Part shown: positions 1 through 50,235 of the stretch, one piece after another | Layout: every line of letters begins with the position of its first letter | How positions within the stretch are numbered: position 1 is the stretch's first letter | Virus record (IMG/VR): IMGVR_UViG_3300036854_000038 | Span: 1 to 50,235 of that record | Length of the DNA: 50,235 nucleotides | DNA from: a virus | Taxonomy: Duplodnaviria; Caudoviricetes | Direction: 5' to 3' (one strand) | The notes under the pieces: model-generated | Told to the model about the DNA's origin: nothing | The model's input: the letters and a program-made list of their open reading frames with translations, nothing else | Database searches by the model: none | Translations under genes and position numbers: made by a program

Positions 1-150
1 GAGGCGACCGTGCGGATCATGGATGATCTGCCACCACGCGAGCGGGCCAAGACACTCGCCTTCTGTGTGGCGGTCCTCATCCTCACCCTGCTCATCATGG
101 CCACCGTGAGGCTGTGAACGCGGCAAGGCCCCGGTCTCGTATCCCGGGGC
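1..150. repeat. Terminal direct repeat, left copy (circular-assembly overlap)
   Basis: 1-150 matches 50086-50235 except at 127/50212 and 143/50228. Confidence 0.95.
10..117 (+). CDS. 35-aa single-TM peptide (same gene as 50095-50202)
   Basis: GTG start with AGGAGG RBS visible in the right-end copy; MRIMDDLPPRERAKTLAFCVAVLILTLLIMATVRL; followed by a hairpin. Confidence 0.6.
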   Translation: MRIMDDLPPRERAKTLAFCVAVLILTLLIMATVRL

Positions 151-160
151 CTTGCCGCGT
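118..160. terminator. Bidirectional terminator-like hairpin between convergent genes
   Basis: Perfect 17-bp inverted repeat ACGCGGCAAGGCCCCGG / CCGGGGCCTTGCCGCGT with a 9-nt loop. Confidence 0.8.
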
Positions 161-183
161 CATGGGGTGTTCTACGTCGGAGC

Positions 184-22302: not shown

Positions 22303-22429
22303 GCTCGCACCATTCGACCGAATCTAGTTTGAGTGGCTGCAACACGAACCGGGGGGCCCCAGTACCCAGGTGGCGGGACCTTCGGTATTTTCCCAGCCCA
22401 AGGGCCTTTCGTTTGTGTGTGTGGGTGGT

Positions 22430-22530
22430 GGTAGGTACCTACCTCCCATAGTACCCACACCCACCCTATACCTACCTACTGTACCCATAGTACCCATACC
22501 TACCTAGGTACTAGGGGTGGGGTAGGACCA
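22430..22530. repeat. Low-complexity TACC/GTAC repeat tract
   Basis: TACCTACCT x3 and CCCATAGTACCCA x2; noncoding, between TerS and TerL. Confidence 0.7.
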
Positions 22531-22538
22531 GGTCCCAC

Positions 22539-22889
22539 CTACAAGGCCTCCAGGTCGACCCCGTCGATGCGGTAGTCCACCTGTCCACCATCCACCTGCA
22601 CCTGGGTACTGCTCGGCCCGTACCCGCTGCGGTCCAACAGCGCCGTCGCAGCACGGACAGCGATCGCCTCATCAGGCGAGTCGAGCAGCTGCACCAGGCG
22701 GGCAGCCGCAGGATCGGCAGCCTCGAGGAGGCGACGGCGCGCCGCATTCTGCACTTGGGGAGCCTTGCCACCATGCAGGTTGCAGACCAGGGAGCCGGGC
22801 GCTGGTGTGCGTCCGCAGCGGCCGCCTGCTCGGTTGTGGGCGGTGCAGCGACGCTTGGGAGGCCCGTCGGTAGGGTGAGGCCCGTTCAT
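22539..22889 (-). CDS. Putative terminase small subunit
   Basis: C.A...G.RC...VC..HGG zinc motif plus helical LLDRSG domain; upstream of TerL; TATGCT 6 nt before the ATG suggests a leaderless transcript. Confidence 0.7.
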   Translation of the reverse strand: MNGPHPTDGPPKRRCTAHNRAGGRCGRTPAPGSLVCNLHGGKAPQVQNAARRRLLEAADPAAARLVQLLDSPDEAIAVRAATALLDRSGYGPSSTQVQVDGGQVDYRIDGVDLEAL

Positions 22890-22947
22890 GGGGTGAGCAT
22901 AGCAAGGCGCCCGGCCGCTGGTGGACGGCCGGGCGGTGGGCGAGGCG

Positions 22948-23148
22948 TCAGATGCGAACGATTCCGCTGGCGTTGTAGACGCTGCGCTGACGGAGCGAGA
23001 GCCGGTTGGTGTGTCGGTAGCAGAATGCCTCATACAGCAGTTCCCAGCGGATTGCGGAGTGGTGGTCTTGCTGACGGCGGGCGCGTTCGATGCGGCGGAG
23101 TGCGCGCATCCTGGTGGTGTGGGTGCGGGTTCCGGTGTAGCGGCCCAT
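22948..23148 (-). CDS. Small helical protein, paralog A
   Basis: AGGAGG RBS; own promoter; downstream hairpin 22908-22935. Confidence 0.7.
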   Translation of the reverse strand: MGRYTGTRTHTTRMRALRRIERARRQQDHHSAIRWELLYEAFCYRHTNRLSLRQRSVYNASGIVRI

Positions 23149-23173
23149 CTTGTTCCTCCTGGCTGGTCTGGTC

Positions 23174-23228
23174 TGTCGAGTCATGACTCTACGCTCTCCC
23201 TGGGATGCTGTCAAGGGATGACTTGACA
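23174..23228 (-). promoter_or_regulatory. Promoter TTGACA-17-TAGAGT with two 20-bp operators
   Basis: -35 at 23214-23209, -10 at 23191-23186; operators 23174-23193 and 23209-23228. Confidence 0.85.
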
Positions 23229-23280
23229 GACGGCTGAGCGCCCGGCCGTGGTGGGGGCCGGGCGCCTTGTGTGGTGGTGG

Positions 23281-23445
23281 TCAGTAGGTGAAGCCTCGGG
23301 CTTTCAGGTACCGGTCGTGTAGTGCGAGGTAAATTGCGTCCCAGCGTTGTACTGCGTCGATGTCACCGTTGTTCCATGCGCGGTGTGAGCGTTGGAATGC
23401 GCGGATGCTTGAGCGTTCCATGCGCTTCAGGCTGTGCTTTCCCAT
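23281..23445 (-). CDS. Small helical protein, paralog B
   Basis: Not in the ORF track; GGAGG RBS; MGKHSLKRMERSSIRAFQRSHRAWNNGDIDAVQRWDAIYLALHDRYLKARGFTY; hairpin 23238-23265. Confidence 0.7.
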   Translation of the reverse strand: MGKHSLKRMERSSIRAFQRSHRAWNNGDIDAVQRWDAIYLALHDRYLKARGFTY

Positions 23446-23468
23446 AGGGTCCTCCCTCCCTCCTCGCT

Positions 23469-23523
23469 TGTCGAGGCATGACTCTACGCTCCCTCATGGA
23501 TGCTGTCAAGCCATCACTCTACG
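23469..23523 (-). promoter_or_regulatory. Promoter TTGACA-17-TAGAGT with two operators
   Basis: -35 at 23509-23504, -10 at 23486-23481; operators 23469-23488 and 23504-23523. Confidence 0.85.
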
Positions 23524-23531
23524 CACTTCTC

Positions 23532-23586
23532 TGTAGAGCCATCCCTTGACGCTCTCCTCTCCCACCTGTAGAGTCATGGCATGACA
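23532..23586 (+). promoter_or_regulatory. Promoter TTGACG-17-TAGAGT with two operators (leaderless)
   Basis: -35 at 23546, -10 at 23569, ATG 6 nt after the -10; operators 23532-23551 and 23567-23586. Confidence 0.85.
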
Positions 23587-23745
23587 GAGAGCCACGCGAC
23601 AGCGAAGCGCCAATGCCCACGGTGCGGACGGGACATCACCGTCGATGATGGCCGGCTCGAGCCAGGGCGGAAAGGCCTGCTGCTTCGCCATCGTGACCCA
23701 GCTCGAGGCTGGAAGCGGTGCCCGTACAGGGGGCGTGGCAAGTGA
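23581..23745 (+). CDS. Small zinc-finger-like protein
   Basis: MTESHATAKRQCPRCGR...LRH...RCPY; stop overlaps the next GTG. Confidence 0.65.
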   Translation: MTESHATAKRQCPRCGRDITVDDGRLEPGRKGLLLRHRDPARGWKRCPYRGRGK

Positions 23746-24782
23746 CGGCGGCGGTCCAGACCCGTTGTGCTGGGTGTGGCCATTTCGTGCGCCGCCGCGC
23801 GGACATCCTTGACCCCGAGTTCAATGAGCTTGCGCGGAGTGAGGAGGCCTACTCGCGTGAGTGGGAGGAGCATGATTGCCCGGCCCAGTACAGCGAGAAT
23901 GCGGCGCCGCGGCGTGGGGAGTATGAGGCGTACCTGGAGAGCCTTGACGTTGACGGGCTTGTGGAGGAGCTGGGGGAGGCTGGCGCGGCCGCGTACCTGG
24001 GTGTGACAGCTGAGACGGTCGACGCTCCCGAGACTGCGGCGGCACCGGTTGCTGCTGCTGCGGCTGTTGAGGCTGCGGTGCCCGAGGTTGAGGCGGTCAG
24101 CCTCAGCGAGCTCGTGCGGCGCATGGATGCGGCCGCGAAGCCTCCGACAGTCCGGCCGCGGCGGCGGGTGACTCCGGTCAGCGCCGAGGACTGGGATGCG
24201 ATCATGGGCGCCCGGGTGGTCGCTGAGGCGGAGCGGATCACCCGGGCGATACCGGCAGCGTGGTTGGAGCCCGTCACGCCTGAGCAGCTGCACCTACTGG
24301 GAGGCGACGATGGTGAGGAGCCGAGCTTACGGGCGCGCGCGCGTCGCGACAGCGCTGGAATGCGGCCAGCGGGTGGCCGACGCGATGGCCAGAAAGGACA
24401 GCGGGACGCCGGAGCAACGGGCCGCCCAAATCGTGGCCCGCAGCCAGGATCTCCGACACCACGACGGGCCGATCGTGCAGCTCGACTTGGACGGCGGAGC
24501 GACACCACTCCCGTCCGCCCCTTGCCCTGGCCCGACACTCCCCAAGGGGAGCGGCCGACAGCTCAGCCTCCCCCTGGCCGTGCCGGTCGTCTACCAGTCG
24601 CCAGCGTGGAACGGGACCGTCGAACAGCCCCCACTCGACCTCGCCGCGGACGGCGAGGGTTGCGGCTGAGTCGCCTGCTGCGCTGGTTGCAGCAGGACGA
24701 CCCACGCTTGACGCATCGGCTTGAGCGGACAGCGCGGGTGGTCGAGTGGGTTGAGCGGCTGTTCGTCGCCGACCCACACTAG
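23742..24782 (+). CDS. Hypothetical protein (acidic N-terminal half; C-terminal half doubtful)
   Basis: RCAGCGHFV start; second half overlaps another ORF (24310-24669). Confidence 0.5.
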   Translation: MTAAVQTRCAGCGHFVRRRADILDPEFNELARSEEAYSREWEEHDCPAQYSENAAPRRGEYEAYLESLDVDGLVEELGEAGAAAYLGVTAETVDAPETAAAPVAAAAAVEAAVPEVEAVSLSELVRRMDAAAKPPTVRPRRRVTPVSAEDWDAIMGARVVAEAERITRAIPAAWLEPVTPEQLHLLGGDDGEEPSLRARARRDSAGMRPAGGRRDGQKGQRDAGATGRPNRGPQPGSPTPRRADRAARLGRRSDTTPVRPLPWPDTPQGERPTAQPPPGRAGRLPVASVERDRRTAPTRPRRGRRGLRLSRLLRWLQQDDPRLTHRLERTARVVEWVERLFVADPH

Positions 24783-24787
24783 CAATC

Positions 24788-24842
24788 TGTAGAGGGATGG
24801 CTTGACACACCCTGCCCATTCATGTAGAGTCATGACACGACA
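24788..24842 (+). promoter_or_regulatory. Promoter TTGACA-17-TAGAGT with two operators
   Basis: -35 at 24802, -10 at 24825; operators 24788-24807 and 24823-24842. Confidence 0.85.
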
Positions 24843-24865
24843 GAGAGACCAGTAGGGGAGGGGCG

Positions 24866-25030
24866 ATGGAGCAAGTCAGGAAGGCCCGGCGGTACACGGC
24901 CACGGTGGAGAGCGCCAGCGGAATCCTCCACACATTCGAGGTTCTTGCGCTCGACCTGAACGGTGCTCGTCATGCGGTGGCGCGCAAGTACCCGGGGACC
25001 TACTTGCGGGCACTGCGCCCAGTCAACTAA
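24866..25030 (+). CDS. Small hypothetical protein (54 aa)
   Basis: GGAGG RBS; MEQVRKARRYTATVESASGILHTFEVLA... Confidence 0.65.
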   Translation: MEQVRKARRYTATVESASGILHTFEVLALDLNGARHAVARKYPGTYLRALRPVN

Positions 25031-38667: not shown

Positions 38668-38854
38668 GGGCTGGACCGGCCTCCCCTGGTTGACAGTAGT
38701 TCTGACAAAGTTTCAGGACACCGTGACCCTACGACGGGTGCCCACCAGTGTCAACAGCCGGCCATGCGTACACTCGTCAGAACAGCAGTATTGACTAGGT
38801 TTTCGACACGCGGGTACGCTCCCCGGAGTGTCCACCCCTCCGAAGGAGCCACGC
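38668..38854. promoter_or_regulatory. Divergent cro/repressor control region
   Basis: CTGACAAAGTTTCAG at 38702-38716 and further GTCA half-sites; TACGCT at 38815-38820. Confidence 0.6.
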
Positions 38855-39382
38855 ATGGCGGCAGAGCAGGAGCGCGGCGGCGCCGCGTTCGGCGCGCTCA
38901 TGGCACAACGGGTCCGCGAGCTCGAGCAGGAGCGCGGCGAGACCATCACCCCGGCGCAGGTGACCCGCTGGGTCTTCCGCGAGCTGGACGACGAGACCCG
39001 CGCCTACGACCAGCAGCAGGCCACCAGGGTCCTCAAAGGCGAGCGGGCCTTCCCCGACACCGAAGAGGTTGACGCCTGGTGCAGGGCGCTCCTGCTGACC
39101 GGTGAGCGCCGCGCCCGCGCGTTCTGGACGGTCGGGCTGCTCCCCCCGGAGGTCGACGCCGAGCAGCTCGCCGCGGCGATGAACGGTGATGGTGGTGCCA
39201 GCAAAAGGCGCGGCCGGCATCTGAGCACCTACCGGGCCCGGCCCGGGGCGACCACCGGCGGCCGCAACGTGCAGCGTCGGAGGACTACCACCCGGTTTGC
39301 TCCGATCGCAGCTCACAGCACGTCCCACGCGGACCTGTCTGCGATCCTGTGCCACGGTGAACGGCTCAACCCGGCCGCATGA
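38855..39382 (+). CDS. Putative immunity repressor (divergent XRE-like)
   Basis: Divergent from cro and upstream of the integrase; FGA.M..R...TRVLKGER.FP...W..AL. Confidence 0.6.
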   Translation: MAAEQERGGAAFGALMAQRVRELEQERGETITPAQVTRWVFRELDDETRAYDQQQATRVLKGERAFPDTEEVDAWCRALLLTGERRARAFWTVGLLPPEVDAEQLAAAMNGDGGASKRRGRHLSTYRARPGATTGGRNVQRRRTTTRFAPIAAHSTSHADLSAILCHGERLNPAA

Positions 39383-39604
39383 GCCCCCACCTGGTGGTCG
39401 GCGTGTGCATGGCCGCCGCGTTCCTGGGCGCTGCCACCGGCAGCGCCCTCGGCCACTGGGTCGCCGACCGGCTCAGGCTGGCATCCCCCCACGATCAACG
39501 TAACGATCGTTCCCCCATCTGTACGAAATTCCGGGACCGTAACACTGCTGTGACCAACCGGTCGGATGCTTCCGCCCCTCTACGCCGAGTAGAAGGGGGG
39601 CCCC

Positions 39605-40960
39605 TTGGAATCGTCCACGACCGCCGCAGTGGGCACGCGCCTGCTCGAACACTTCTCCGACCAGCTCCACCGTATCCCCCTAGGCTTCGGCCCCCGCCAC
39701 CTGGTCGCGCTGCTGATCCTGCTGGCCGTGGGGTACGTGGCTAGGCATGCACCGGACCCCCACGGCCAGCTGGCCGGTGCCCTGCCCGACTCGGGCAGCC
39801 TCCCAGACCCCGAGCTGTACATCGCCGGGCTGACCGGCGGCGGCCTGTGGGAGCGCTACAAGCTGACCATCTCCATGGACGGCCGTCACGAGCCGTCCAC
39901 CGTCGCCCAGTGGGGCGAGGTGTGGGACGACTGGCTCGTCTACCTGCACGCGGCCGGGTGCCGGCGCCGGCCGGGCCGCTGCGACCGTGGGGAGGGCTGC
40001 AAGGGCATCCCCTGGCAGCGCGCCCGGGAGCGGCACTTGAAGGCGTTCCTGGACCTGCCGTGCCGCAGCGGCCCCCGCAAGGGCATGGCCAAGACGGTCG
40101 CCACCAGGGCGGCCTACCTCAAGGCGATCAAGCCGGTGTACCAGTTCGCCGTCCGCAAGCGCATCCTGAGCCGCGACCCGTTCGCCGACGTCCGCCCACC
40201 CAAGGTCGGCGACGGGCTGGCTATCGCGTTCTCCCGCGACCAGCTCGCCAAGATCCTGACCGCCGCGGCCGGCCACGCCGACCGGCGGATCTACATCATG
40301 TGCTGGCTGGGCTACCACGGCCTGCGGTGCATGGAGATCGCCGGGTTGCGCCGCGAGCATGTCCGCCTGGACGACGAGCCGGTGCTGCTGGTGCACGGCA
40401 AGGGCAGCAACCGCCGGGAGGTCCCGGTGATGCGCCTGTTCGTACCGGTGCTGGCCGAGTGGACCCGGGACATGGGGACCTTCGACCCGCTGATCGTCGC
40501 CCACGACAACCAGTGCCGGCCGACCGCGCAGCCGCTCAGCCCCTCCCGGATCTCGGGGATGCTGAGCGACTTCATCCGCCACGACGCGGGCGTCGGCGGC
40601 AGCGCCCACCGGCTGCGGCACACCGCGGCGACGTTCATGCTCGACGAGGGCGACGGGGAGAACCTGCATCATGTCAGCCGGTTCCTCGGGCATGCCAGGC
40701 TCGACACGACGATGATCTACGTGCGCGCGCACCAGTGGAACGTCCGCAAGTGGGTCGACCGGATGCCGGACCCGGCTGACCCGACCCGCCGGCAGCCCCA
40801 GCCGCAGCGCCTCGGTGAGCTGCTCGGCGAGGCACTGCGGCAGACGCTCACCCCGGAGATGAGCCGGCGGCTCCGGGACCTCCCCGAGGACCTGGCCGCA
40901 ACCTACCGGCCGCTGCTGGAGCTTGGCCACCTGCTCGCAGCCGATCAGGCCGGCGGTTGA
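39605..40960 (+). CDS. int: Tyrosine integrase/recombinase
   Basis: Catalytic set GLRCMEI (R), HGKG (K), HRLRH (HxxR), LGH...TTMIY (H, Y); start uncertain. Confidence 0.9.
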   Translation: MESSTTAAVGTRLLEHFSDQLHRIPLGFGPRHLVALLILLAVGYVARHAPDPHGQLAGALPDSGSLPDPELYIAGLTGGGLWERYKLTISMDGRHEPSTVAQWGEVWDDWLVYLHAAGCRRRPGRCDRGEGCKGIPWQRARERHLKAFLDLPCRSGPRKGMAKTVATRAAYLKAIKPVYQFAVRKRILSRDPFADVRPPKVGDGLAIAFSRDQLAKILTAAAGHADRRIYIMCWLGYHGLRCMEIAGLRREHVRLDDEPVLLVHGKGSNRREVPVMRLFVPVLAEWTRDMGTFDPLIVAHDNQCRPTAQPLSPSRISGMLSDFIRHDAGVGGSAHRLRHTAATFMLDEGDGENLHHVSRFLGHARLDTTMIYVRAHQWNVRKWVDRMPDPADPTRRQPQPQRLGELLGEALRQTLTPEMSRRLRDLPEDLAATYRPLLELGHLLAADQAGG

Positions 40961-41148
40961 CCCTCGCCGGCGGTTGACCGCAGCCATGCCTGCACGTCTG
41001 CCCACCGGTACCTGGGGGACCGGCCGGCCCGCACGAACGGTGGGCCGGTCCCCTGGCTGCGCCAGCGTGCCAGGGTGCGCCGCGAGACCTTCAACTCGCG
41101 GGCAAGCTCGGCAGCGGTCAGCAACTCGCCAGGCTCATGTTCACGCAT
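40945..41148 (-). CDS. xis: Excisionase-like HTH protein
   Basis: LLTAAELARELKVSRRTLARWRSQGTGPPFVR.G...RY....VQAWL. Confidence 0.8.
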   Translation of the reverse strand: MREHEPGELLTAAELARELKVSRRTLARWRSQGTGPPFVRAGRSPRYRWADVQAWLRSTAGEGQPPA

Positions 41149-41149
41149 C

Positions 41150-41332
41150 GGACCCCCAAGGCCATCAGGGGCGGATTGTACCCGCCCGGCACCTGATGGC
41201 ATCACCCGGCGACTCGGGGCATCTACGGTCAGCATCCTTCGTCATCCTCCGGCACTACTTGACATCTTCGGGGAGCCTGGCGAACGATGACACAGGCGGG
41301 GCGTGGTGTCCTCTTGGACCCCCAAGGCCATC
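41150..41332. repeat. 17-bp direct repeat with interspersed CATC boxes
   Basis: GGACCCCCAAGGCCATC at 41150-41166 and 41316-41332. Confidence 0.7.
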
Positions 41333-41411
41333 GGGACGCCGCGCCCCAGAAAAGAAAGGCTCCCCGGGCGCGACCGGGAAGCCTTTCATCGGAGCAAGAG
41401 GGGGCCACCTC

Positions 41412-41603
41412 ATGCCCACTACGGGTGAAGTCTACGCGGCCTTGGCTGCCGAAGCAGCCGGCCTGCGGTTCCAGGTCAAGCGGTTCCTGCGCCTGCTGCG
41501 GGAAGCCGGCGTCGACCCTCCCGGCAGCCTGGCAGGCGCCGAGCGGACTCTCCACCAGCTTGAGGAGACCATGGCCGAGCAGGCAAGGCAGGCGGCGCAA
41601 TGA
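41412..41603 (+). CDS. Small hypothetical protein
   Basis: GAGGGGG RBS + ATG. Confidence 0.55.
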   Translation: MPTTGEVYAALAAEAAGLRFQVKRFLRLLREAGVDPPGSLAGAERTLHQLEETMAEQARQAAQ

Positions 41604-41893
41604 TCGCGGTCGTCAGCCCGACCCGCCGCGTGGTGTTGTGTACCCCGCCGCCACCCGGGACCGTCGTCCAGCAGCTCCAGGTCAGCCCGGGTACCCCGTC
41701 CGCGAAGGTCCTCGCGGGTGCCGCGCAGGTGCTGGAGCCGGCCGCGGTCGTCGAGCTGTGGCAGCGGCTGGCCAGCGCCGGTGACGACGTCGACCTTGAC
41801 AGGGTGCTCGAGCATGCCGCGCAGGTGCTGCCACCCGGCAAGGTCGACGAGCTCCGCGAGCTGCTGGAACCACCGTTCCAACGGGCGGATTAG
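41600..41893 (+). CDS. Hypothetical protein
   Basis: ATGA-coupled. Confidence 0.5.
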   Translation: MIAVVSPTRRVVLCTPPPPGTVVQQLQVSPGTPSAKVLAGAAQVLEPAAVVELWQRLASAGDDVDLDRVLEHAAQVLPPGKVDELRELLEPPFQRAD

Positions 41894-41980
41894 CCGTAAC
41901 CGTCCGCAACAGTGTAACTGCCTGGAACAACCTACGGCGCGTAGATTGTCCTTTAGCCATCGCGCGAACAAGGGGGGCGT

Positions 41981-42187
41981 TTGGCCGTGGCATCCGCAAT
42001 CCCACCGCGACGCAGGTTCCACCGCGAGACCGCGGGCCTGTCGAGCAAGATCACCCACGTCCTCGAGGCCGCCGCCGAAGAAGGTGTCGACATCCACAAC
42101 CACGTCTTCAATCTGCTGCTCGACACCAAACGCTGGGCGGACCAGCAACGCGGCGAGCCGGACGGCAAACCCAAGGACGGGGTCTAG
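41981..42187 (+). CDS. Small hypothetical protein
   Basis: AAGGGGGG RBS. Confidence 0.45.
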   Translation: MAVASAIPPRRRFHRETAGLSSKITHVLEAAAEEGVDIHNHVFNLLLDTKRWADQQRGEPDGKPKDGV

Positions 42188-42199
42188 CGGCCGGCTTGG

Positions 42200-42528
42200 T
42201 CAGCGGAGCACTGACGTGTCATCAATTTCCGGGTCAAACCCGAGGCGGGCCACGCAGTCGGCCTCCCATGATCCCGGCCGGCGGGCGAGCAGGCGGGTCA
42301 TCCCGCCGGCCTTGGCGCTGGCCTGGCGGATGCCGTCCGACAGCCAGCCGGCAATCTCGATGCCGTCGGCGTGCGCCCAGCCGATCAGCGTGGCCAGCGC
42401 GTCGGTGTACTCCGTGGCGTACTCCGTACTCCACGGCGGGGCTCTGGGTCGAGGTCGCTGCCGGGTCGGATAATCTGCTGGTCGTCAGCAGTTCTGCCAG
42501 TGGCTGAGTCGATTGGGTTGTCGGTCAT
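42200..42528 (-). pseudogene. Apparently frameshifted gene
   Basis: The ATG frame stops after about 47 codons; the -1 frame reads EYATEYTDALATLIGW...LLARRPGSWEADCV and has no start before this segment. Confidence 0.4.
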
Positions 42529-43229
42529 TGGCTTTCCTCCCGGAGGCGGCGGGACAGGGTGGTGCGGGCCATGCCGACCGCGCCGGCGACCTCGTCAAGG
42601 CTCAGCCCGCCCGCGGTCAGCAGCTCCCTTGCGCGCGTGACCTGACCTGCGTCGTTGTGCCGTGGACGGCCTCCTGTGCGGCCTCGCGCGCGCGCTGCTT
42701 CCAGGCCAGCGCGGGTGCGTTCGCGGAGCAGGTCCCGCTCGAACTCGGCCAGCGCCGCCATGATGTGGAACAGCAGCCTGCCGGCCGGCGTGCTGGTGTC
42801 CAGCGCCTCGGAGAGGCTGTGGAAGGCGACGCCGCGGCGCTCCAGCTCGCCGACGACCTCCAGGAGGTGCTTGAGGCTGCGGCCGAGCCGGTCCAGCTTC
42901 CACACGACCAGCGTGTCCCCCGGGCGCAGCTGCTCCAGGAGCGCGTCGAGCTCCGGGCGGTCCTGGCGGGCGCCGCTGGCGTGGTCGGTGAACACCCGCC
43001 GGCAGCCGGCCCGCTGGAGCGCGTCAAGTTGGAGCTCGGGATGCTGGTCGACGGTGGACACGCGGGCGTAGCCGAGCTGGTAGCCGGACCACTCTGGCGG
43101 CGGGCCGAAACCCGTCGTGTCGGCCTGGTCGGCGGCCAGGGTTTTGGTCGACGGTTTTGGTCCCGGACGATCGCCGTTGGCGCCGGCCGGGCCCGGGTCG
43201 ACCACAAGGGAGCGTTTCTGCCCGGTCAC
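42525..43229 (-). CDS. Small serine recombinase (resolvase/invertase family)
   Basis: GYARVSTVDQ, RPELD.LL..LRPGDTLVVWKLDRLGRS, AEFER....ERT.AGL.AARARGR.GGRP, C-terminal HTH. Confidence 0.95.
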   Translation of the reverse strand: MTGQKRSLVVDPGPAGANGDRPGPKPSTKTLAADQADTTGFGPPPEWSGYQLGYARVSTVDQHPELQLDALQRAGCRRVFTDHASGARQDRPELDALLEQLRPGDTLVVWKLDRLGRSLKHLLEVVGELERRGVAFHSLSEALDTSTPAGRLLFHIMAALAEFERDLLRERTRAGLEAARARGRTGGRPRHNDAGQVTRARELLTAGGLSLDEVAGAVGMARTTLSRRLREESQ

Positions 43230-43684
43230 GTCTTGCTCGCTCGGTCGTAGTCGTCGAGCCACCGCTGCGCGTATTCGCTGAGCCGGTAGTACTCCTCCGG
43301 GTGCAGCTTCGGATCGCCGCCGTGCTTGCGCTTCATCCAGCCGAGCAGGTCGCCGATGATCTCGAAGGCTTCCTGATCGGCCTTGCGCAGCCGTTCGACC
43401 TCGCCGATGAGGTGGTCGGTATCGTCGGGGGCATGGGCGATGAACTCAGCGTCTTCGCGTTTCCAGACGCCAGCTTCACCATGTTCGGTCGCCACGATAC
43501 TGTCGTCGTCTTCCCGGCCGAGGATGTCCCAGTGCCACTGGGCCGACTCCTCATGTGATGGCCGTGAGCGGCGCCATGCTTCGCCGATCCGATCGTGAAC
43601 CCGCCACGGCGGCCGGGTGATGGCTGCTCTGCGAGCCTTGATCTGGTCGAGGTTGAGCGGATCGGGGACGGCAGGGTCAGTCAT
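43226..43684 (-). CDS. Ead/Ea22-like phage protein
   Basis: IKAR.AA.T..PW...DAEFIAHAP.D...L..EVERLR. Confidence 0.7.
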   Translation of the reverse strand: MTDPAVPDPLNLDQIKARRAAITRPPWRVHDRIGEAWRRSRPSHEESAQWHWDILGREDDDSIVATEHGEAGVWKREDAEFIAHAPDDTDHLIGEVERLRKADQEAFEIIGDLLGWMKRKHGGDPKLHPEEYYRLSEYAQRWLDDYDRASKT

Positions 43685-43824
43685 GCGGCGGCCTTTCTCC
43701 CGTAGCGTTTCTGCCCGGTCACCAGTCGTTCCCCCGGCGCGGCCTGTTCAGCAGCCATATCAGCAGCAGACCGAGCGCGCATCCAATGACTGCGCCCAAC
43801 ACGCTCCAGCCGGCGGCAACCCAA

Positions 43825-44130
43825 TCAGCGTGCGTCATGCTGTGACCTCCCGGTACCTGATCGCCGCGTGGCCGCGTCAAGGTCGGCGCGCAGCGTGCGG
43901 ACCAGCCAGTTGAGCATCCGCTCGTCCACCGGGTCGTCGCCGAGTGGCCGCAGCGCGCCGACCAGGGTCGCATAGGCACTGATCGTGCGGCGGGCTATCT
44001 CGCGGTCGGGGCGAAGCTCCGATTCCGGGGCGTCGCTGTTGACGAAGGGGTCGAGCAGGTCGCGGAGCAGGCCGAGCGCTTCGGCGACCTGCTCGGCGGG
44101 CACCGTCGGCGCGGGACGGGTCTGGGTCAT
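43825..44130 (-). CDS. Hypothetical protein
   Basis: GGAGG RBS; ATGA-coupled. Confidence 0.6.
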   Translation of the reverse strand: MTQTRPAPTVPAEQVAEALGLLRDLLDPFVNSDAPESELRPDREIARRTISAYATLVGALRPLGDDPVDERMLNWLVRTLRADLDAATRRSGTGRSQHDAR

Positions 44131-44354
44131 CGGGACGCCTCCAACTCGCGGGCCACCTTGGCAGCCTGCTGGGCCATGTCGGCGAGACGCTCAAAATCGA
44201 CCGCTCGGCCAGTGATGATGACCGAAGGTGTTATGTCGAATTGCGCGAGCGCGTTGCCCTGGTCCCAATGCGCATGCGGTGGCCAGGGCAGACTGGCGTC
44301 GCCTAGATGGACGAAGGTGATGGCGTGCTGCCGGTACTCGCTGCTGGTGCTCAT
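44127..44354 (-). CDS. Hypothetical protein
   Basis: GGGAGG RBS + ATG. Confidence 0.6.
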   Translation of the reverse strand: MSTSSEYRQHAITFVHLGDASLPWPPHAHWDQGNALAQFDITPSVIITGRAVDFERLADMAQQAAKVARELEASR

Positions 44355-44532
44355 GCTGTGACCTCCCGGTCAGACGGTGCTGGTGTACCACGGCCACGCA
44401 GGCGCCGCACTCTAGGGGGTGGCGCCGGCCAGGGTGGCTCCAAGAGCGCGTCGCCCAGGCAGAGCGCGCACGCCACCAGAGCACCGCGGCGGACCAGTTC
44501 GGCCTCGCAACGGCAACGCGGGCAGACGCCCA

Positions 44533-44826
44533 TCAGCGGTGCCCCGCTGGGCGGCTGAGCACCAGCGCGATCACCGCGAGACTGATCGCGCCCATAGTGA
44601 CCATGCCGGCGACCGCCACTGCGGCGGTGAGCACGGCGGCGACCAGCGCGACGATGGCGACCACGCCACCGACGACCATGCCGGCGGTGGTGAGCACGAT
44701 GGTCACGGCGGTGGCAGGGTGCATCCGGGCCAGCGAGTCGAGCACCAGCACCGGCGTGGGTCTGGGTGGCATGTCGGCCTGGGGGACGATCTCCACCGGC
44801 CGGCAGGCGGGTGGTTGTGGGCGCAT
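44533..44826 (-). CDS. SpdD-like membrane protein
   Basis: Pro-rich N-terminus then a long Ala/Val hydrophobic hairpin; downstream of the FtsK gene. Confidence 0.6.
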   Translation of the reverse strand: MRPQPPACRPVEIVPQADMPPRPTPVLVLDSLARMHPATAVTIVLTTAGMVVGGVVAIVALVAAVLTAAVAVAGMVTMGAISLAVIALVLSRPAGHR

Positions 44827-44835
44827 CAGGGTCTC

Positions 44836-45147
44836 CTAGTTTCTGAGCAGCTCGAGGACGCGGCCGAGCCGCGCGGTCGGCTCGGCGTGGCCCTTCTCGC
44901 TGATCACTCGGGTGGGCTGGCCGCCGACCAGCCGCGCGCTTGGCGCGCCGGAGGCGACGAACGCCAGCGTTCGGAACGTCTCCACCGCGTCGAGCACGCG
45001 ACGATGCTCGGCGTCGGGGATGGGCAGGTCGTAGACCAGCGTCGGGCCTTCGCTGGCGAGCGCCATGTGCCGGGGTAGCCGGCCGCGGTAGGCCGCGAGC
45101 AGCCGGCCGGCCTGGTCGACGACCAGGAAGGTGCGTCCGTGGGACAT
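44836..45147 (-). CDS. Hypothetical protein
   Basis: GGAG RBS; MSHGRTFLVVDQ... Confidence 0.55.
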   Translation of the reverse strand: MSHGRTFLVVDQAGRLLAAYRGRLPRHMALASEGPTLVYDLPIPDAEHRRVLDAVETFRTLAFVASGAPSARLVGGQPTRVISEKGHAEPTARLGRVLELLRN

Positions 45148-45181
45148 CGGGTCTCCGTCACTGTGGGTGGTCGGGCGGTCG

Positions 45182-45343
45182 GGTCTAGCTAGCGACGGGC
45201 GGCACCCACCGCGGGGCCGGTTTCGAGGCCCAGGAGGGCCGTTCGAGCGGCCGGCCGCTAGCCGATAGGCTCCTGGTCGGGCAGGGGATTTGCCGCTAGT
45301 GGGGCCGCTAGACCTAGCGGGGTTGGGCGCTAGGTCTAGCGGC
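45182..45343. repeat. GCCGCTAG repeat cluster (clt-like) and 16-bp hairpin
   Basis: GCCGCTAG at 45254, 45292 and 45304, inverted at 45336; eight CTAG in 155 bp; stem 45304-45343. Confidence 0.7.
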
Positions 45344-45352
45344 GTTCCGGGG

Positions 45353-47473
45353 TCAGGAAGCACGGCGCCTCCGGTCACGCTCGGTGGCCACGGCGACGAC
45401 ATCGGCGCGCCAGATCCCGCGCCGGTTGGCACCCTGGCCGGTCGCCGGGTCGGTGGCCCACACCTGCCCGGTGGCGTCGATGTCGAGGTCCTTGAGCGCG
45501 GCGGTGAGGTGCTCGCGGCTCCAGGTGCCGTACACCTGCGGCCGGTAGGCCGCCAGCCGCTCCAGCAGGATCTCGCCCCACAGCCGGTCCTCGTTCGGCG
45601 GCACCACCACGAGCACGTCGGCGAGGAGCTCCTCGACCTTGGCCAGCGTGCCGCCGGACTCCGGCTCCTCACCGATCGCGTGGCCGGAGAGGGTGCCTGC
45701 CTTCTCCCGCGCGTACCGGGCGCGCGCGGCGATCCGCTCGGCCGCTGGGGCGTCCACGTAGAACGTCCGGGCAATGACGGGATCGTCGCCCTCGCCGGCC
45801 AGGTAGCCGATGCCCAGGTCACGGCGGGTGAACATGGTTGCCCTGATGCCGTTGCGGTGCGCCGAGCCGCCCAGGACCATGTCATTCTCGACGTGCGACA
45901 TGACCTTGAAGCAGAAGCGGAGCACCGCGTTTGCCGAGATGCCCTTGGGCAGGCTCTTGGCGTCGGGCCGCTGGGTGGCGAGGATGAGCATGATCCCGAC
46001 CGCCGGGCCCCGGCGGATGATGTCCTCGCACACCGAGGCCAGCTCGTCGCCGAACTCGGGATGCTCGAACCACGCTTGGCACTCGTCCACGCCGATGACG
46101 ATCGGGTGGAGCCGATACTGCGGCAGCTTGACCAGCTCCCGGGTGATCTTGCTCTCCGGCGCGAGATGGCGGGGCAGGCCGCGGATCTCCTTGGTGCGGC
46201 GGCGCATGTCGTCTCGCACCTCACGCATGCACCCCAGCGCGAACGAGACGTCTCGGTCCTCGTCGCCCGCGCGGTACCGGTGCGAGACGAACTCCAGTGG
46301 GCCGAGATCGCCGGTGCCTTTCAGGTCGTACACATGCAGCTCAACGGTGGGGTCGAGCGCGGCGGCGAGCAGCGCGAGACGCAGCGAGAAGGTCTTGCCC
46401 ATCCGGGGCACGCTGCCGATGACCATGCTCGCGTACATCAGCGTGAGCGGCACGATACGGCCGCGCGGGTCGGTGCCGAACGGGAACGCGCGGAACAGGT
46501 TGACCGTGCCGGCCCTGATAAGCGGCCAGGCGGGCTGCTTGGCCTGGCTCATGTCCTCATCGCCGACCCAGAGGACGAGACGGCCGGCGTGCTGCTCGTG
46601 CGCGGGCTCCGGCCACACCGAGCCGAGTGGGCGGCGCAACGCCGAGGCGAGCTTGTCTCGCCGCTCGATCACGTCGCTGGCGGTGACCCCGTGCGGCAGG
46701 TCGATGTCGGCGCGCCACCCGGGCCCGTCCCGGGTGATCGGCGCCGGGAAGGTGATCGCGCCGGTGTTGCGCTCGCTCATCCCGCTGATGCCGAGCGAGA
46801 CGAACGCGCGCCTGACCATCTCGCTGGTGAGCCTGCTGGCCTTCGCCTTGACCACGGCGGTGTCCAGCAGCGGCTTGTCGGGCCGCTTGCCGAACGCACC
46901 CAGGACAACCACCCCGGCGACCGCCAGCACCGCCCGGCCGATCGGCCCGGCGGCGACCGCCAGCACCGCGACGATGCCGACCAGCGGCACCACGACGATG
47001 GCCGTGGCGGTGCCACGCACCTTGACGCGGGCGTCGCGGTGCCGCTGGAGCCGCAGGTACTGGCCCGCGTCGGCCTGGTCACGCGCCGCGCGGCGCACCG
47101 GATGGCCCTCGAGGTCGAGCATCCAGGTGAACGTTGCGGCGGCGATCCTCCAGGCGCCACGCGGGGAGCGCAGCGCGAGCCGGCCGAGGTACAGCGTCGG
47201 CACCCTGACCGCCTGGAAGGCGGCGATGTATGCGGCGTAGGTGATCGCCCAGGCAACCGTCTTGCGCAGCGCCTGGAGGGAACGCAGCCACGGTGGCAGG
47301 ATCGGCCGCCTGGTGGCCGTGCGCGGGTCGGGCCGGGGCGGCCGCTGTGCCTCCGCACTGTCGACCAGCACCCGCTCACCGTCGTCGTCGTCGGCGTCGG
47401 TGGTGAAGTGGCGGGTCGCGTCGAGGTCGACCTGTTCGGCGTGGCCGTTGTGTTCGTGCAGGTCACTGCTCAT
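45353..47473 (-). CDS. FtsK/SpoIIIE-family DNA translocase (TraB-like)
   Basis: N-terminal TMs; Walker A GSVPRMGKT, YDLKG.GD, Walker B IVIGVDECQ, ILATQRP; C-terminal wHTH-like domain. Confidence 0.92.
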   Translation of the reverse strand: MSSDLHEHNGHAEQVDLDATRHFTTDADDDDGERVLVDSAEAQRPPRPDPRTATRRPILPPWLRSLQALRKTVAWAITYAAYIAAFQAVRVPTLYLGRLALRSPRGAWRIAAATFTWMLDLEGHPVRRAARDQADAGQYLRLQRHRDARVKVRGTATAIVVVPLVGIVAVLAVAAGPIGRAVLAVAGVVVLGAFGKRPDKPLLDTAVVKAKASRLTSEMVRRAFVSLGISGMSERNTGAITFPAPITRDGPGWRADIDLPHGVTASDVIERRDKLASALRRPLGSVWPEPAHEQHAGRLVLWVGDEDMSQAKQPAWPLIRAGTVNLFRAFPFGTDPRGRIVPLTLMYASMVIGSVPRMGKTFSLRLALLAAALDPTVELHVYDLKGTGDLGPLEFVSHRYRAGDEDRDVSFALGCMREVRDDMRRRTKEIRGLPRHLAPESKITRELVKLPQYRLHPIVIGVDECQAWFEHPEFGDELASVCEDIIRRGPAVGIMLILATQRPDAKSLPKGISANAVLRFCFKVMSHVENDMVLGGSAHRNGIRATMFTRRDLGIGYLAGEGDDPVIARTFYVDAPAAERIAARARYAREKAGTLSGHAIGEEPESGGTLAKVEELLADVLVVVPPNEDRLWGEILLERLAAYRPQVYGTWSREHLTAALKDLDIDATGQVWATDPATGQGANRRGIWRADVVAVATERDRRRRAS

Positions 47474-47486
47474 GAGGGGCCTTCTT

Positions 47487-47768
47487 TCAGGCGTAGGCGT
47501 AGGCCAGCGCGGGCCGACGTTCGGGCGGGGGTGGATAGGCGAGGTAGCTGCGGACCGCCTGCACCAGCCCGGCGATGCCGGCGCCGATCAGCACCAGCAC
47601 GACGCCGGCCACGCATGCCAGCCGGGCGGGGCTGACTCGGTGGGCGAGCCGGACGGACAGGGTGGCGCCGGCCGGGGTGGTGGCGGGCCGGCCGAGGATG
47701 GCGTTGGCGATCAGGGCCAACGCGACGAGGTAGACGAGGACGATGAGGGTCAGGGTGTCGGCGGTCAT
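47487..47768 (-). CDS. 2-TM membrane protein
   Basis: AAGGAG RBS; two hydrophobic helices. Confidence 0.65.
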   Translation of the reverse strand: MTADTLTLIVLVYLVALALIANAILGRPATTPAGATLSVRLAHRVSPARLACVAGVVLVLIGAGIAGLVQAVRSYLAYPPPPERRPALAYAYA

Positions 47769-47843
47769 GGCGTGCTCCTTGGTGGTCGGTGGCTGGCCGG
47801 GTCGAGAGGCGCTCCGGGCGGGCCGGAGGACCTCCTGGCCCTG

Positions 47844-48032
47844 TCAGCGGCGGATAGCGGTACCGGCCTGGGCCTGCGCGTCGAGCTCGGCGGTGCGCTG
47901 GTCGTACTCGACGCGGATGGCGATGGCCCGCTCCGCCCAAGTGCTCGCGTTCTCTGCGGCCAGGCCACCGGCCACGAGGCTGCCCTGCTCTGTGATGTCG
48001 GTCTCGAACCAGCGGTCGCTGTGGTCGCTCAT
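47844..48032 (-). CDS. Small hypothetical protein
   Basis: ATGA-coupled. Confidence 0.55.
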   Translation of the reverse strand: MSDHSDRWFETDITEQGSLVAGGLAAENASTWAERAIAIRVEYDQRTAELDAQAQAGTAIRR

Positions 48033-48652
48033 GGCGTCCCTTCCTTTCCGGCGGCGGTCCCGCCGTTGACGGCGGCCAGCTCGCGGAGCACGCGCCGGCC
48101 GTAGTTCTTGGTGCCGAATTGGCGGTCAAGATCAGCGCCGGTCGGGTCTCGCCCTTCGGCGCGCTCGGCGAGCACGTACGCGCGCATCCGGTCTCCGACG
48201 CGCGCCGGGCGGCCGGCCTTGCGGCGCGTGCGAGACGGCGTGCGAGACGCAGACCGGGCCGTCTCGCTCGCCGTCTCGGCCTTGCCGGCGGTCTCGCGCA
48301 TGCGGGGCAGCTCGAGGACGACGATCGCCAGCAGCAGCGCGACGGGGGGGACAGCGCGGGCGAGCCACGCGGGCGGGGCGAGGACCTGGAAGGCGACCGA
48401 GCAGGTGAACGCGAGCAGCAGCATCGCCCAGGCGCGCCAGTCTCGCCGGTCATCGCGGACGCCGAGCGCGCCGGAGGCAGCGGCGGCGTCGATCACCAGC
48501 GCCCACCCGGATGCGAGCAGCTTGCGTGGCAGGATCGCCTGATCGGGGATGACGCCGGAGTCCAGCGCCTGCGCGCGGAGCGCGTCGAACGAGAGCACCG
48601 CCGCGGCGGCGGCGAGAAAGACAACGAGCCAGCGGCGCGCGTGGGCTTGCAT
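48029..48652 (-). CDS. DUF2637/SpdB-like membrane protein
   Basis: LSF.ALR..A...G..., W.LVID, SVA.Q, AVPPVALL; 4 TMs plus HTH-like tail. Confidence 0.75.
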   Translation of the reverse strand: MQAHARRWLVVFLAAAAAVLSFDALRAQALDSGVIPDQAILPRKLLASGWALVIDAAAASGALGVRDDRRDWRAWAMLLLAFTCSVAFQVLAPPAWLARAVPPVALLLAIVVLELPRMRETAGKAETASETARSASRTPSRTRRKAGRPARVGDRMRAYVLAERAEGRDPTGADLDRQFGTKNYGRRVLRELAAVNGGTAAGKEGTP

Positions 48653-48757
48653 GCGGCCTTCGCCTCCAAATGCGATCGGCCCTGAGCTGGTTGCGCAGCT
48701 CAGGGCCGATCACGACGGGTGATCTTCAACGAGGAGGCATCAGCGCGCAACCGCCAA

Positions 48758-48853
48758 TGTTCAGGTCTCTGTACGACCCTAAGCGTACAGGGATCTGAAC
48801 ACCTGTCAAGGGTGGGCTGTTCAGAGGCCTTCACGGCTGCGTATGCTGCCGTC
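48758..48853. promoter_or_regulatory. Divergent promoters with three 18-bp operators
   Basis: TGTTCAGGTCTCTGTACG (48758), CGTACAGGGATCTGAACA (48784), TGTTCAGAGGCCTTCACG (48818); leftward TTGACA-16-TACGCT; rightward TATGCT 6 nt before ATG 48854. Confidence 0.7.
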
Positions 48854-49174
48854 ATGCCCGAGGACCAGTCCGCCGCCGCGGCAGCGCGGCTCCAGCAGGC
48901 CATCGACGCCCTCACCAGAGCGTTCGAGGATGCGCTCGCGCTCGTCGACGCCAGCATCCGGGAGGGCGACCGGCAGGAAGCGCTCGACCTGGCGGTGACG
49001 CTGTTCGAGGCGATCGAAGCCAAGTACCATCAGACTGCCAAGCGCCGCAAGGCAGCCATCCGCCGAGTCTGGGACGAGGAGAAACCCTCCGTCCGTCAGA
49101 TGGCGCGGCGAGCGCGCATGTCGACAACCCGCGCGCACCAGCTCAAGCCCGGCGGCCAGAAGGAGGAGCCATGA
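48854..49174 (+). CDS. Regulator with C-terminal HTH (Kor-like position)
   Basis: SVRQMARRARMSTTRAHQL; divergent from the transfer operon. Confidence 0.7.
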   Translation: MPEDQSAAAAARLQQAIDALTRAFEDALALVDASIREGDRQEALDLAVTLFEAIEAKYHQTAKRRKAAIRRVWDEEKPSVRQMARRARMSTTRAHQLKPGGQKEEP

Positions 49175-49815
49175 CCAGCCTCGCAACCGACCTGCTGGCG
49201 ATCCTAGAGGCCCAATGGCGCGACACCGGCCGGCTCTTCCGCGCCGACATCGCCTGGCTACTGGAGGAGGCCCGGCAGCTCCGCACCGGTTACAAGCGCG
49301 TCACTGTCCAGGTGTTCCCACTCTGGGCCGGCAGGGAAGGTATCTGGCTGCTGTCCGGCGCCTGGCCGTGGTCCAGCGGCGCGATCCTCGACGGCGTCAG
49401 GAACCACCAGGTCGTCGAGGACCTGCTCCGGCAGCACGGCATCCCGGTCGACCAGCGCACCGTGCCGCTGCTGCACGAGACGTCCTGCATGGACCTCCTC
49501 AAGGTCGAGACCCACACCTACCTCGCCGAGGTCCGCTGGCGGGAGCCGATCCGCCGTGACTGGCCGGATGCGATCCCGATCGACCCGGAGGAGGTCGAAC
49601 GGATGGGGCCGCCGCCGACGCACGGCGCCGCGGAGGAGCCGGACTCGCGCGTGTGGGACCCGCTGATCCACGGCATCGGGGTCTTCCACACCGAGCGGGA
49701 CAAGAACGCGACGACCAGGCGGGACATGAGCCCGCTGATGCGCCGCCACGTCAGCAGGTTCGAGAAGACGCTCTACCGGCTGTACGAGCAGGAGCACCCG
49801 GCGACGGTCGCCTAA
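49171..49815 (+). CDS. Hypothetical protein, possibly a degenerate NUDIX-like fold
   Basis: AAGGAGGAG RBS, coupled to the HTH gene; V.VFPL...I.LL...LLHETS...TYLA.V pattern; no intact NUDIX box. Confidence 0.6.
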   Translation: MTSLATDLLAILEAQWRDTGRLFRADIAWLLEEARQLRTGYKRVTVQVFPLWAGREGIWLLSGAWPWSSGAILDGVRNHQVVEDLLRQHGIPVDQRTVPLLHETSCMDLLKVETHTYLAEVRWREPIRRDWPDAIPIDPEEVERMGPPPTHGAAEEPDSRVWDPLIHGIGVFHTERDKNATTRRDMSPLMRRHVSRFEKTLYRLYEQEHPATVA

Positions 49816-49893
49816 CCTCCCCCTTGTGTTGAGAGAGGTCACTCTCTATCCTCTCAAGGTGACAAAGGATGTCACGCACCGGGGAGGATCACC

Positions 49894-50019
49894 GTGCGAC
49901 ACTCCAAGACCTGGCCCATGCGCGCCTGGCGGCGCGTCTCGCTCACCATCATCAGCGCCGGCGCCGCGGCCTTTGCCCTGGCTGGCCTGGCCAGTCCGGA
50001 TCAGTTCATCTGGAACTGA
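49894..50019 (+). CDS. 41-aa secreted propeptide (candidate signalling peptide)
   Basis: GGGGAGG RBS + GTG; MRHSKTWPMRAWRR-VSLTIISAGAAAFALAGLA-SPDQFIWN. Confidence 0.7.
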   Translation: MRHSKTWPMRAWRRVSLTIISAGAAAFALAGLASPDQFIWN

Positions 50020-50032
50020 TCCCAACTCCTCC

Positions 50033-50079
50033 CAGCGCCGGCCCCGCCCTGCCCGGTTCCGGGGCCGGCGCTGTCCTTT
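50033..50079 (+). terminator. Terminator-like hairpin after the propeptide gene
   Basis: 14-bp stem CAGCGCCGGCCCCG / CGGGGCCGGCGCTG followed by TCCTTT. Confidence 0.7.
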
Positions 50080-50085
50080 GGTCAG

Positions 50086-50235
50086 GAGGCGACCGTGCGG
50101 ATCATGGATGATCTGCCACCACGCGAGCGGGCCAAGACACTCGCCTTCTGTGTGGCGGTCCTCATCCTCACCCTGCTCATCATGGCCACCGTGAGGCTGT
50201 GAACGCGGCAAAGCCCCGGTCTCGTATACCGGGGC
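50086..50235. repeat. Terminal direct repeat, right copy
   Basis: 148/150 identical to 1-150. Confidence 0.95.

Follow-up and report, generated by a model that had tools for sequence, protein, structure and literature searches.

A conserved gene pair of actinobacterial integrative elements in a phage-like record, and a possibly separate 41-codon gene beside it

According to passages of a 2008 review, the element pSAM2 stays integrated through the action of its repressor KorSA and the Nudix protein Pif, which also give conjugal immunity (PMC2440964). The same passages state that most integrative and conjugative elements of actinomycetes (AICEs) encode a regulator and a Nudix hydrolase, and they describe the trigger of AICE transfer as unknown (PMC2440964). 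Here we analyze a stretch of viral DNA that carries a gene pair of related appearance. The stretch, which we call the window, is the whole of the IMG/VR virus record IMGVR_UViG_3300036854_000038 (Duplodnaviria; Caudoviricetes; 50,235 bp; approximately 70% G+C throughout). Near its 3' end are genes for a 106-amino-acid (aa) protein with a helix-turn-helix (HTH)-like segment and for a 214-aa protein, followed by a 41-codon open reading frame (ORF). An earlier note on the window had proposed that these three genes form one peptide-communication module, with an HTH regulator, a putative sensor and a secreted propeptide. Our favored explanation, to which we assign a probability of roughly 0.5, is instead that the locus comprises two separate units that lie side by side, and that the small ORF encodes a membrane miniprotein.

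The 106-aa and 214-aa genes recur together in other genomes. A DNA motif pattern applied to species-representative genomes found 62 stretches, of which 18 encode a member of the 214-aa family, 8 of them strongly, and a metagenome scan added 17 loci, giving 25 strong loci in total. These counts include one locus (L058) from a genome flagged as unpublished (G005), and no claim depends on that locus alone. An iterative search that started from the 106-aa protein of the window showed that, in 24 of the 25 strong loci, a relative of that protein is encoded upstream of the Nudix-like gene, while the remaining locus has only 70 nucleotides (nt) of upstream sequence. Of 25 family ORFs, 22 have a TANNNT hexamer 6 to 8 nt ahead of the start, as compared to 1.3% of all ATGs in the loci, and we read this spacing as suggesting that the pair is transcribed without a leader. 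Among the matches listed, the named members of the 214-aa family in public genomes are all called "hypothetical protein", and they occur in Dactylosporangium, Nonomuraea, Streptosporangium and Planobispora. On the evidence of sequence comparison, the two genes are a conserved, unnamed and widespread two-gene unit of actinobacterial integrative elements.

The genes facing the pair are also shared between the window and some of these elements. Upstream and divergent of the pair, the window encodes a 207-aa membrane protein, two small ORFs and a 706-aa FtsK/SpoIIIE-like protein. This block spans 48029-48652 through 45353-47473, where the latter interval is the FtsK-like gene, which matches phrog_1358 (E 9.5e-28) and, weakly, TraB and EccC. 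In Nonomuraea roseola (locus L063), the pair is divergent from genes for a small membrane protein, a WhiB-like protein, a 248-aa membrane protein and an FtsK-like protein, the last being 45.5% identical to that of the window over 690 aa. On the FtsK-like side of the pair in Nonomuraea montanisoli (locus L096), there are genes for WhiB, Prim-Pol, DUF3987 and a tyrosine integrase. Judging by gene content, the Nonomuraea loci hold the gene set of AICEs. The divergent transfer operon postulated in the earlier note was found, in that the coupled pair faces an operon with an FtsK-like translocase both in the window and in the Nonomuraea loci.

Some further observations concern the distribution of the pair. 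Two Nonomuraea loci have, on the other strand and 1.2-1.8 kb downstream of the pair, a second, divergent paralog of the HTH-like family (L064:3842-4144 and L024:2363-2674, both on the minus strand). The HTH and Nudix-like genes are also found at the edge of a fetched locus from a second IMG/VR contig of 28.8 kb (L099:1-1021, minus strand). This locus came from a DNA pattern scan of IMG/VR that gave 2 stretches, and it offers no downstream sequence.

The 214-aa protein has no match in Pfam, NCBIfam or PHROGs. However, an exhaustive HMMER search of 1.84 billion representatives found 110 relatives at E <= 0.001 (35 at 1e-10 and 2 at 1e-30), which are mostly 170-190 aa in length and align to residues 44-210 of the query. 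We aligned the window protein with 49 of these 110 relatives, and the AlphaFold2 model based on the resulting 50-member alignment has a predicted local distance difference test score (pLDDT) of 90.1 and a predicted template modeling score (pTM) of 0.81. When the model was compared to the PDB with Foldseek, the top rows were AraR (5deq), NadQ (7q93), NrtR and many Nudix hydrolases, with E-values near 1e-3. With VIA-align, nearly all of the 50 rows listed were Nudix proteins, with a top Z of 9.2 and root-mean-square deviations (rmsd) of 3.1-3.4 over 114-134 aligned residues; they include NrtR (3gz5_A, Z 9.2, rmsd 3.4, 134 residues), AraR (5bs6_A, Z 9.1) and NadQ (7q91_A, Z 7.8). Plain Nudix hydrolases score equally (3i9x, Z 9.2), so that what is matched is the fold and not the subfamily of regulators. 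The aligned region, model residues 30-199, is mainly the Nudix part, and four C-terminal helices lie at 163-206. The idea that this gene encodes a sensor thus receives some support from the model, whose predicted fold is that of the ligand-sensing domains of NrtR, AraR and NadQ.

The catalytic signature of Nudix enzymes is absent from the family. A regular-expression search for the Nudix box GX5EX7REUXEEXGU gave 0 hits among the 50 aligned members, the core RE..EE was likewise found in 0 of 50, and Pfam's NUDIX family matched 0 of 50. There is also no canonical Nudix box in any frame of the window. The 214-aa protein is, according to the model, a Nudix fold without the catalytic signature. One related protein (P0006, 346 aa) has two stretches that match the profile (368 bits), and looks like a tandem double of the Nudix-like domain.

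Other searches with these proteins gave little. A profile search of PDB sequences with the 214-aa family alignment found nothing significant. A word-index protein search with the 214-aa sequence returned only the protein itself, which is a weak negative because the same search missed a 55%-identical protein that the exhaustive search found. When phages and plasmids were searched by tblastn with the 214-aa, 706-aa and 41-aa proteins, and phages by blastn with 47400-50235, no match was found. The ESM Atlas likewise supplied nothing of use. Scans of IMG/VR with the 214-aa, 706-aa, 106-aa and 41-aa proteins and one family alignment yielded no confirmed match.

The evidence that the 106-aa protein is an HTH regulator, as the earlier note had called it, comes from its relatives. 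Among 18 aligned family members, 7 match HTH_10, 4 match Rv2175c_wHTH and 3 match Sigma70_r4 (all at E <= 0.05), and the family has a common C-terminal segment of the type SLAxLAxRIGVSKxRAxQL. However, the window's own copy has no match to any Pfam HTH family, so the designation is sustained by weak matches in family members and not by the copy at hand. A profile search of PDB sequences with the 106-aa family found only designed helical proteins and RpoH (E 0.025).

Given this conserved pair, we investigated whether the small ORF travels with it. There are 23 loci that match the 214-aa family at E < 1e-50, of which 19 have at least 300 nt of downstream sequence and four are too short to judge. 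We looked for an ORF of 20-110 aa on the same strand that starts within 450 nt and has a hydropathy of at least 1.8 and a third-position GC content of at least 0.75. The 41-codon ORF and the 35-codon ORF that follows it in the window both pass this filter. A small hydrophobic ORF on the same strand downstream of the Nudix-like gene was found in 0 of the 19 homologous loci; two of them have a non-hydrophobic ORF of about 106 aa instead. Moreover, a profile of the 41-aa peptide, applied to five pair-bearing genomes and to a sample of 401 genomes of the class, gave no convincing match (best scores 20.8 and 21.4 bits). As indirect evidence, the longest contigs of the peptide variants have no length in common with those of at least 120 members of the Nudix-like family, apart from this record. 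The pair thus occurs widely without the peptide gene, and the proposal of a conserved three-gene module fails on the observation that the earlier note had itself named as refuting it, namely that homologous loci lack the small ORF.

The small ORF itself nonetheless appears to be genuine. It is found in this record, in a second assembly of the same phage and in metagenomic contigs of 2.3-61 kb; it had been described as unannotated, but it is present in protein collections, called at 33 aa in this record and at 41 aa in the second assembly. Ten distinct sequence variants are available, all with the same length and open frame, down to 66% identity. The mean pairwise difference among them is 0.076 for residues 1-14, 0.25 for residues 15-33 (where the changes are conservative and hydrophobic), 0 for residues 34-35, 0.67 for residues 36-38 and 0.31 for residues 39-41. 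Residues 36-38 read DQF, NQF, THF, NAA, TRT, AKA or TKF, and the last three residues are IWN or GWS. Trp40 and the LASP motif are invariant; Ala occupies position 33 in every variant, and position 31 is restricted to Gly, Ala or Ser. The earlier note had anticipated a variable, Trp-containing tail, and the variants bear this out. From these comparisons, we conclude that the 41-codon ORF is a genuine and conserved gene. As for its product, the searches brought up no sequence relative whose function is known.

In the 41-aa protein, the maximum hydropathy is 2.03 (as compared to 3.1 in the 35-aa product). The uncharged stretch comprises 20 residues, which would suit a retained membrane anchor. 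The basic and aromatic N-terminus is the best conserved part, which fits a retained cytoplasmic segment better than the disposable n-region of a signal peptide. Two other classes of exported protein were considered. We set aside a twin-arginine translocation (Tat) signal, with RR before the hydrophobic stretch, as two variants have KR and the rest of the motif is poor, and we rejected a lipoprotein, as there is no Cys.

Coordinates of the locus features are collected in Table 1. The positions given in the earlier note hold for the ORFs and their ATGA overlap, for the GGAGG sites and the two palindromes, and for the hairpin that follows the 41-codon ORF.

Table 1. Positions of genes and nucleic-acid features at the locus, numbered in the window
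Feature	Position	Strand	Description
106-aa ORF	48854..49174	+	helical N-terminal part, C-terminal helix-turn-helix-like segment
214-aa ORF	49171..49815	+	ATG overlaps TGA of 106-aa ORF (ATGA), apparently translationally coupled; predicted Nudix fold without Nudix box
41-aa ORF	49894..50019	+	GTG start; basic N-terminal region, 19-20-residue hydrophobic stretch, tail SPDQFIWN
35-aa ORF	50095..50202 (= window 10-117, inside end repeat)	+	C-terminal transmembrane stretch; own GGAGG at 50085-50089
Ribosome-binding site GGAGG	49883..49887	+	6 nt 5' of the GTG of the 41-aa ORF
Terminator-like hairpin after 41-aa ORF	50033..50073 (arms 50033-50046, 50060-50073)	+	14 bp, perfect; -35.8 kcal/mol, z -4.67, 0/200 shuffles equal
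Hairpin in tail codons	49998..50022	+	10 bp, perfect, over DQFIWN codons and stop; -17.2 kcal/mol, z -4.95
Inverted repeat	48674..48711	.	16 bp, perfect, 6-nt loop, between the divergent genes, just upstream of minus-strand 207-aa gene; -36.6 kcal/mol, z -9.0, 0/200 shuffles
Operator-like inverted repeats TGTTCAG / CTGAACA, three copies	48758..48835	.	upstream of 106-aa gene; 18 nt at 89% and 18 nt at 78% complementarity
-10-like hexamer TATGCT	48842..48847	+	6 nt before ATG of 106-aa gene; leaderless-type start
Promoter-like TTGTGT-N17-TATCCT	49824..49875	+	found by eye, putative function; overlaps palindromes TTGAGAG-N15-CTCTCAA (49829-49857) and GTGACA-N5-TGTCAC (49859-49875)
Strong two-way terminator hairpin	112..165	.	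between 35-aa ORF (+) and convergent 52-aa membrane ORF; -44.4 kcal/mol, z -6.5

Third-position GC content is 0.88 in the 41-aa frame and 0.83 in the 35-aa frame, as compared to 0.62-0.65 in overlapping frames on both strands; by this measure, the two frames are coding and the overlapping frames are not. At a threshold of 90%, the cluster of the 35-aa ORF contains only this phage, in two assemblies. The hairpin that follows the 41-aa ORF was not listed by a consensus terminator scan because it lacks a T-run. The hairpin within the tail codons was considered as a conserved element and set aside, as the variant tails, judging from their proteins, could probably not keep the pairing. Among the five hairpins folded at the locus, the inverted repeat upstream of the 207-aa gene has the most extreme z-score.

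The sites upstream of the genes are less clear-cut. The TGTTCAG / CTGAACA repeats are a candidate binding site. An E. coli-type promoter scan found no promoter at the site noted by eye upstream of the 41-aa ORF. Of the palindromes that overlap this site, TTGAGAG-N15-CTCTCAA has 1 match versus 0.08 expected, a count that 8 of 100 shuffles reach, and GTGACA-N5-TGTCAC has 2 matches versus 1.82 expected when up to 2 mismatches are allowed. The former is a pattern rarely expected by chance, while the latter is not beyond chance by the 2-mismatch test. As RNA, the region upstream of the 41-aa ORF does not fold unusually (z -1.37), and an Rfam scan of 48000-50235 gave only sub-threshold microRNA models at chance level.

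The locus extends across the ends of the record. The first 150 bases of the window equal the last 150 (1-150 versus 50086-50235), with 2 mismatches at repeat positions 127 and 143. Because of this repeat, gene order runs on from 50,235 to approximately position 151, and the locus continues into the lysis genes at the window start. Beyond the two-way hairpin on this circle, the opposite strand carries a 52-aa hydrophobic ORF (184-342, minus strand) and then the endolysin gene (465-1403), which matches phrog_1493 (E 7.9e-28). Relatives of the endolysin in IMG/VR (10 loci with 30-46% identity in the tblastn listing) are accompanied by none of the other genes of the locus. IMG/VR classes the record as linear, but from the 150-bp overlap it follows that the assembly is circular or that the record has a short terminal repeat.

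The record encodes a terminase large subunit, a portal, a major head protein, an endolysin, a tyrosine integrase and a serine recombinase, and contains no tRNA gene. It is a temperate actinophage-like element with high-GC soil bacteria as hosts, in agreement with the earlier designation as a probable actinophage. Within this phage with its full structural genes, the region 38800-48652 is a block of AICE type, with the tyrosine integrase at 39605-40960, the serine recombinase at 42525-43262 and the FtsK-like translocase at 45353-47473. The window may be a phage-AICE mosaic. A region at 22100-24900, between the terminase gene and the early genes, has a lower G+C content (0.637 at 23-24 kb), and none of its ORFs passes the codon-position filter.

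It is important to weigh several points that count against our favored explanation. Binding functions are putative for both proteins of the pair, and the HTH of the window's 106-aa protein is degenerate. Canonical Nudix-box genes are present within approximately 3 kb of the boxless gene in two loci (L051 near 1599, minus strand; L010 near 7766, plus strand), and the boxless protein is therefore not simply an equivalent of Pif. The proteins of the 19 loci are only about 28-36% identical to the window protein (BLASTP), and the absence of the small ORF from these loci, as a matter of sequence comparison, is strong evidence against a family-wide module but weak evidence against a recent, lineage-specific coupling. 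Within the small ORF, the small residues at positions 31 and 33 and the composition would fit the cleavage of a signal sequence. Small residues at -1 and -3 are the rule for signal peptidase I sites, and a basic segment with an Ala/Gly-rich hydrophobic stretch, 33 residues in all, has the length and composition of actinobacterial signal peptides. Finally, an invariant SP and a near-invariant IWN around three hypervariable residues make up the pattern of a signaling-peptide family.

Several of these points could be explained if the ORF encoded a secreted signaling propeptide. Such a propeptide would be exported and cut after Ala33 (or Ala30), and the SPxxxIWN octapeptide or a shorter piece would build up outside the cell, be re-imported and be recognized by a non-RRNPP receptor, which might be the Nudix-like protein with the HTH protein, or another protein. 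The peptide would then tune lysis-lysogeny or transfer, with the tripeptide setting its specificity. This explanation is unlikely in our estimation, though it deserves serious consideration. It accommodates an ORF that is nearly all signal-like sequence followed by an 8-residue tail, with conserved small residues at 31 and 33, an invariant SP and Trp40, and hypervariable residues 36-38. The ORF has its own ribosome-binding site and terminator hairpin, and 78 nt separate it from the upstream gene, whose product has the fold of small-molecule sensors (NrtR, AraR, NadQ). The size and layout of the ORF also resemble AimP and Phr precursors. However, none of the 19 homologous loci has a comparable ORF, the pair is widespread without the peptide, and the peptide family has no convincing score in the genomes that were searched. 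A receptor of the expected kind is also missing: as the earlier note had recognized, the scanned proteins of the window include no TPR/RRNPP receptor, in that the 106-aa protein reaches only 15.7 bits with TPR_20 (cutoff 25) and ten further proteins have no TPR. In addition, the n-region is the most conserved part of the protein, which is unusual for a signal peptide that is discarded, and the known Nudix-type regulators bind nucleotides or sugars rather than peptides, according to the titles of the matched PDB entries. More ambitiously, the locus might represent the first peptide communication system of an actinobacterial phage, with an SPxxxIWN-type peptide whose tripeptide marks phage identity and with a receptor that does not belong to the RRNPP/TPR class. 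At its boldest, this proposal would have the degenerate Nudix-fold protein and its small HTH partner sense the peptide and set the FtsK-like transfer operon or lysis-lysogeny. We regard this extended proposal as improbable.

The proximity to the lysis genes raises a different idea, in which the 41-aa and 35-aa peptides act on the membrane as holin modulators or in the manner of type I toxins. Both are short peptides with a single helix, and both are encoded within 1.5 kb of the endolysin and the 52-aa hydrophobic ORF. However, the lysis operon runs convergently on the other strand, and the strong two-way terminator lies between it and the two ORFs. No antisense RNA or partner was found, with the Rfam scan giving microRNA models at chance level only, and a holin modulator would not be expected to have a hypervariable, outward tail. 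A role as a lysis-timing accessory or small membrane toxin is thus a poor prospect. Least probable is that the small ORFs are non-functional and that their conservation reflects the recent common ancestry of near-identical phages. It is true that the variants are all metagenomic and that several differ by few residues. However, the differences are strongly non-uniform over the 41 residues (compare 0.076 at the N-terminus with 0.67 in the tripeptide), the frame stays open at equal length in ten variants to 66% identity, third-position GC content sets it apart from the overlapping frames, and the ribosome-binding site is strong.

In our favored explanation of two adjacent units, the pair would be a backbone operon of actinobacterial integrative, AICE-like elements, facing the operon with the FtsK-like DNA translocase. 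The small HTH protein would bind the inverted repeats in the divergent promoter region, and the 214-aa Nudix-like protein would be its non-catalytic partner, of a ligand-binding or immunity type. The 41-codon ORF would be an independent gene, equipped with a ribosome-binding site and a terminator hairpin of its own and probably a promoter, inserted between the pair operon and the convergent lysis genes. We infer that its product resides in the membrane, with the conserved basic and aromatic N-terminus in the cytoplasm and the short tail outside. It could be a prophage-borne accessory ("moron") membrane miniprotein, serving, for example, in exclusion or defense, whose outward tail diversifies.

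The two units are of interest for different reasons. The pair of HTH and boxless Nudix genes is present here also in a phage, together with an FtsK-like translocase of AICE type, and resolving its role could explain how such elements sense when to transfer. The 41-aa product, with a conserved frame around a hypervariable tripeptide, is a compact test case. If it is secreted, phage peptide signaling would extend beyond Bacillota, and if it stays in the membrane, it would belong with those prophage products that are exposed at the surface, diversify and have been linked to exclusion or defense.

The arbitrium (AimR-AimP-AimX) and Rap-Phr systems of Bacillota are similar to the locus in having a regulator or sensor, an ORF of about 40 codons with a signal-like N-terminus and a variable tail, and a small gene, and the temperate phage setting is also similar. 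However, there is no TPR receptor here, the peptide gene is not a conserved neighbor of the receptor candidate (0 of 19 loci), and the host phylum is another one. Among the literature matches listed, none describes arbitrium in actinophages, and the only mention of arbitrium concerns Bacillus. For the 41-aa product, a comparison class is that of prophage moron genes, which encode small membrane proteins for superinfection exclusion or defense. The likeness consists of a small single-helix product, signals of its own (ribosome-binding site, promoter-like site, terminator hairpin), a position between operons of a temperate phage, and a patchy occurrence in relatives.

For the 214-aa protein, the best structural matches, shared equally with plain hydrolases, are to NrtR, AraR (Bacteroides) and NadQ, which use a Nudix-like domain as a regulatory ligand sensor. 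In those proteins, the domain is fused to a C-terminal winged helix, whereas here the DNA-binding candidate is encoded by a separate gene upstream.

The differences from KorSA-Pif of pSAM2 are as follows. KorSA is a protein of the GntR family, whereas the regulator candidate here is a minimal HTH protein of about 106 aa, and no GntR is among the 25 Pfam families listed for 18 of its members. Pif, which we compared by its description in passages of the review cited above, needs its Nudix motif (PMC2440964), whereas the motif is absent from the 214-aa family in 50 of 50 members. Also, two of the homologous loci carry a canonical Nudix gene in addition. What the systems have in common is the arrangement: a regulator and a Nudix-fold gene beside an FtsK-like transfer gene of an integrative element, as seen in the window, in Nonomuraea roseola and in Nonomuraea montanisoli. 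By this analogy, the locus contains a conserved Kor/Pif-like pair of AICE-type backbones, here in a phage.

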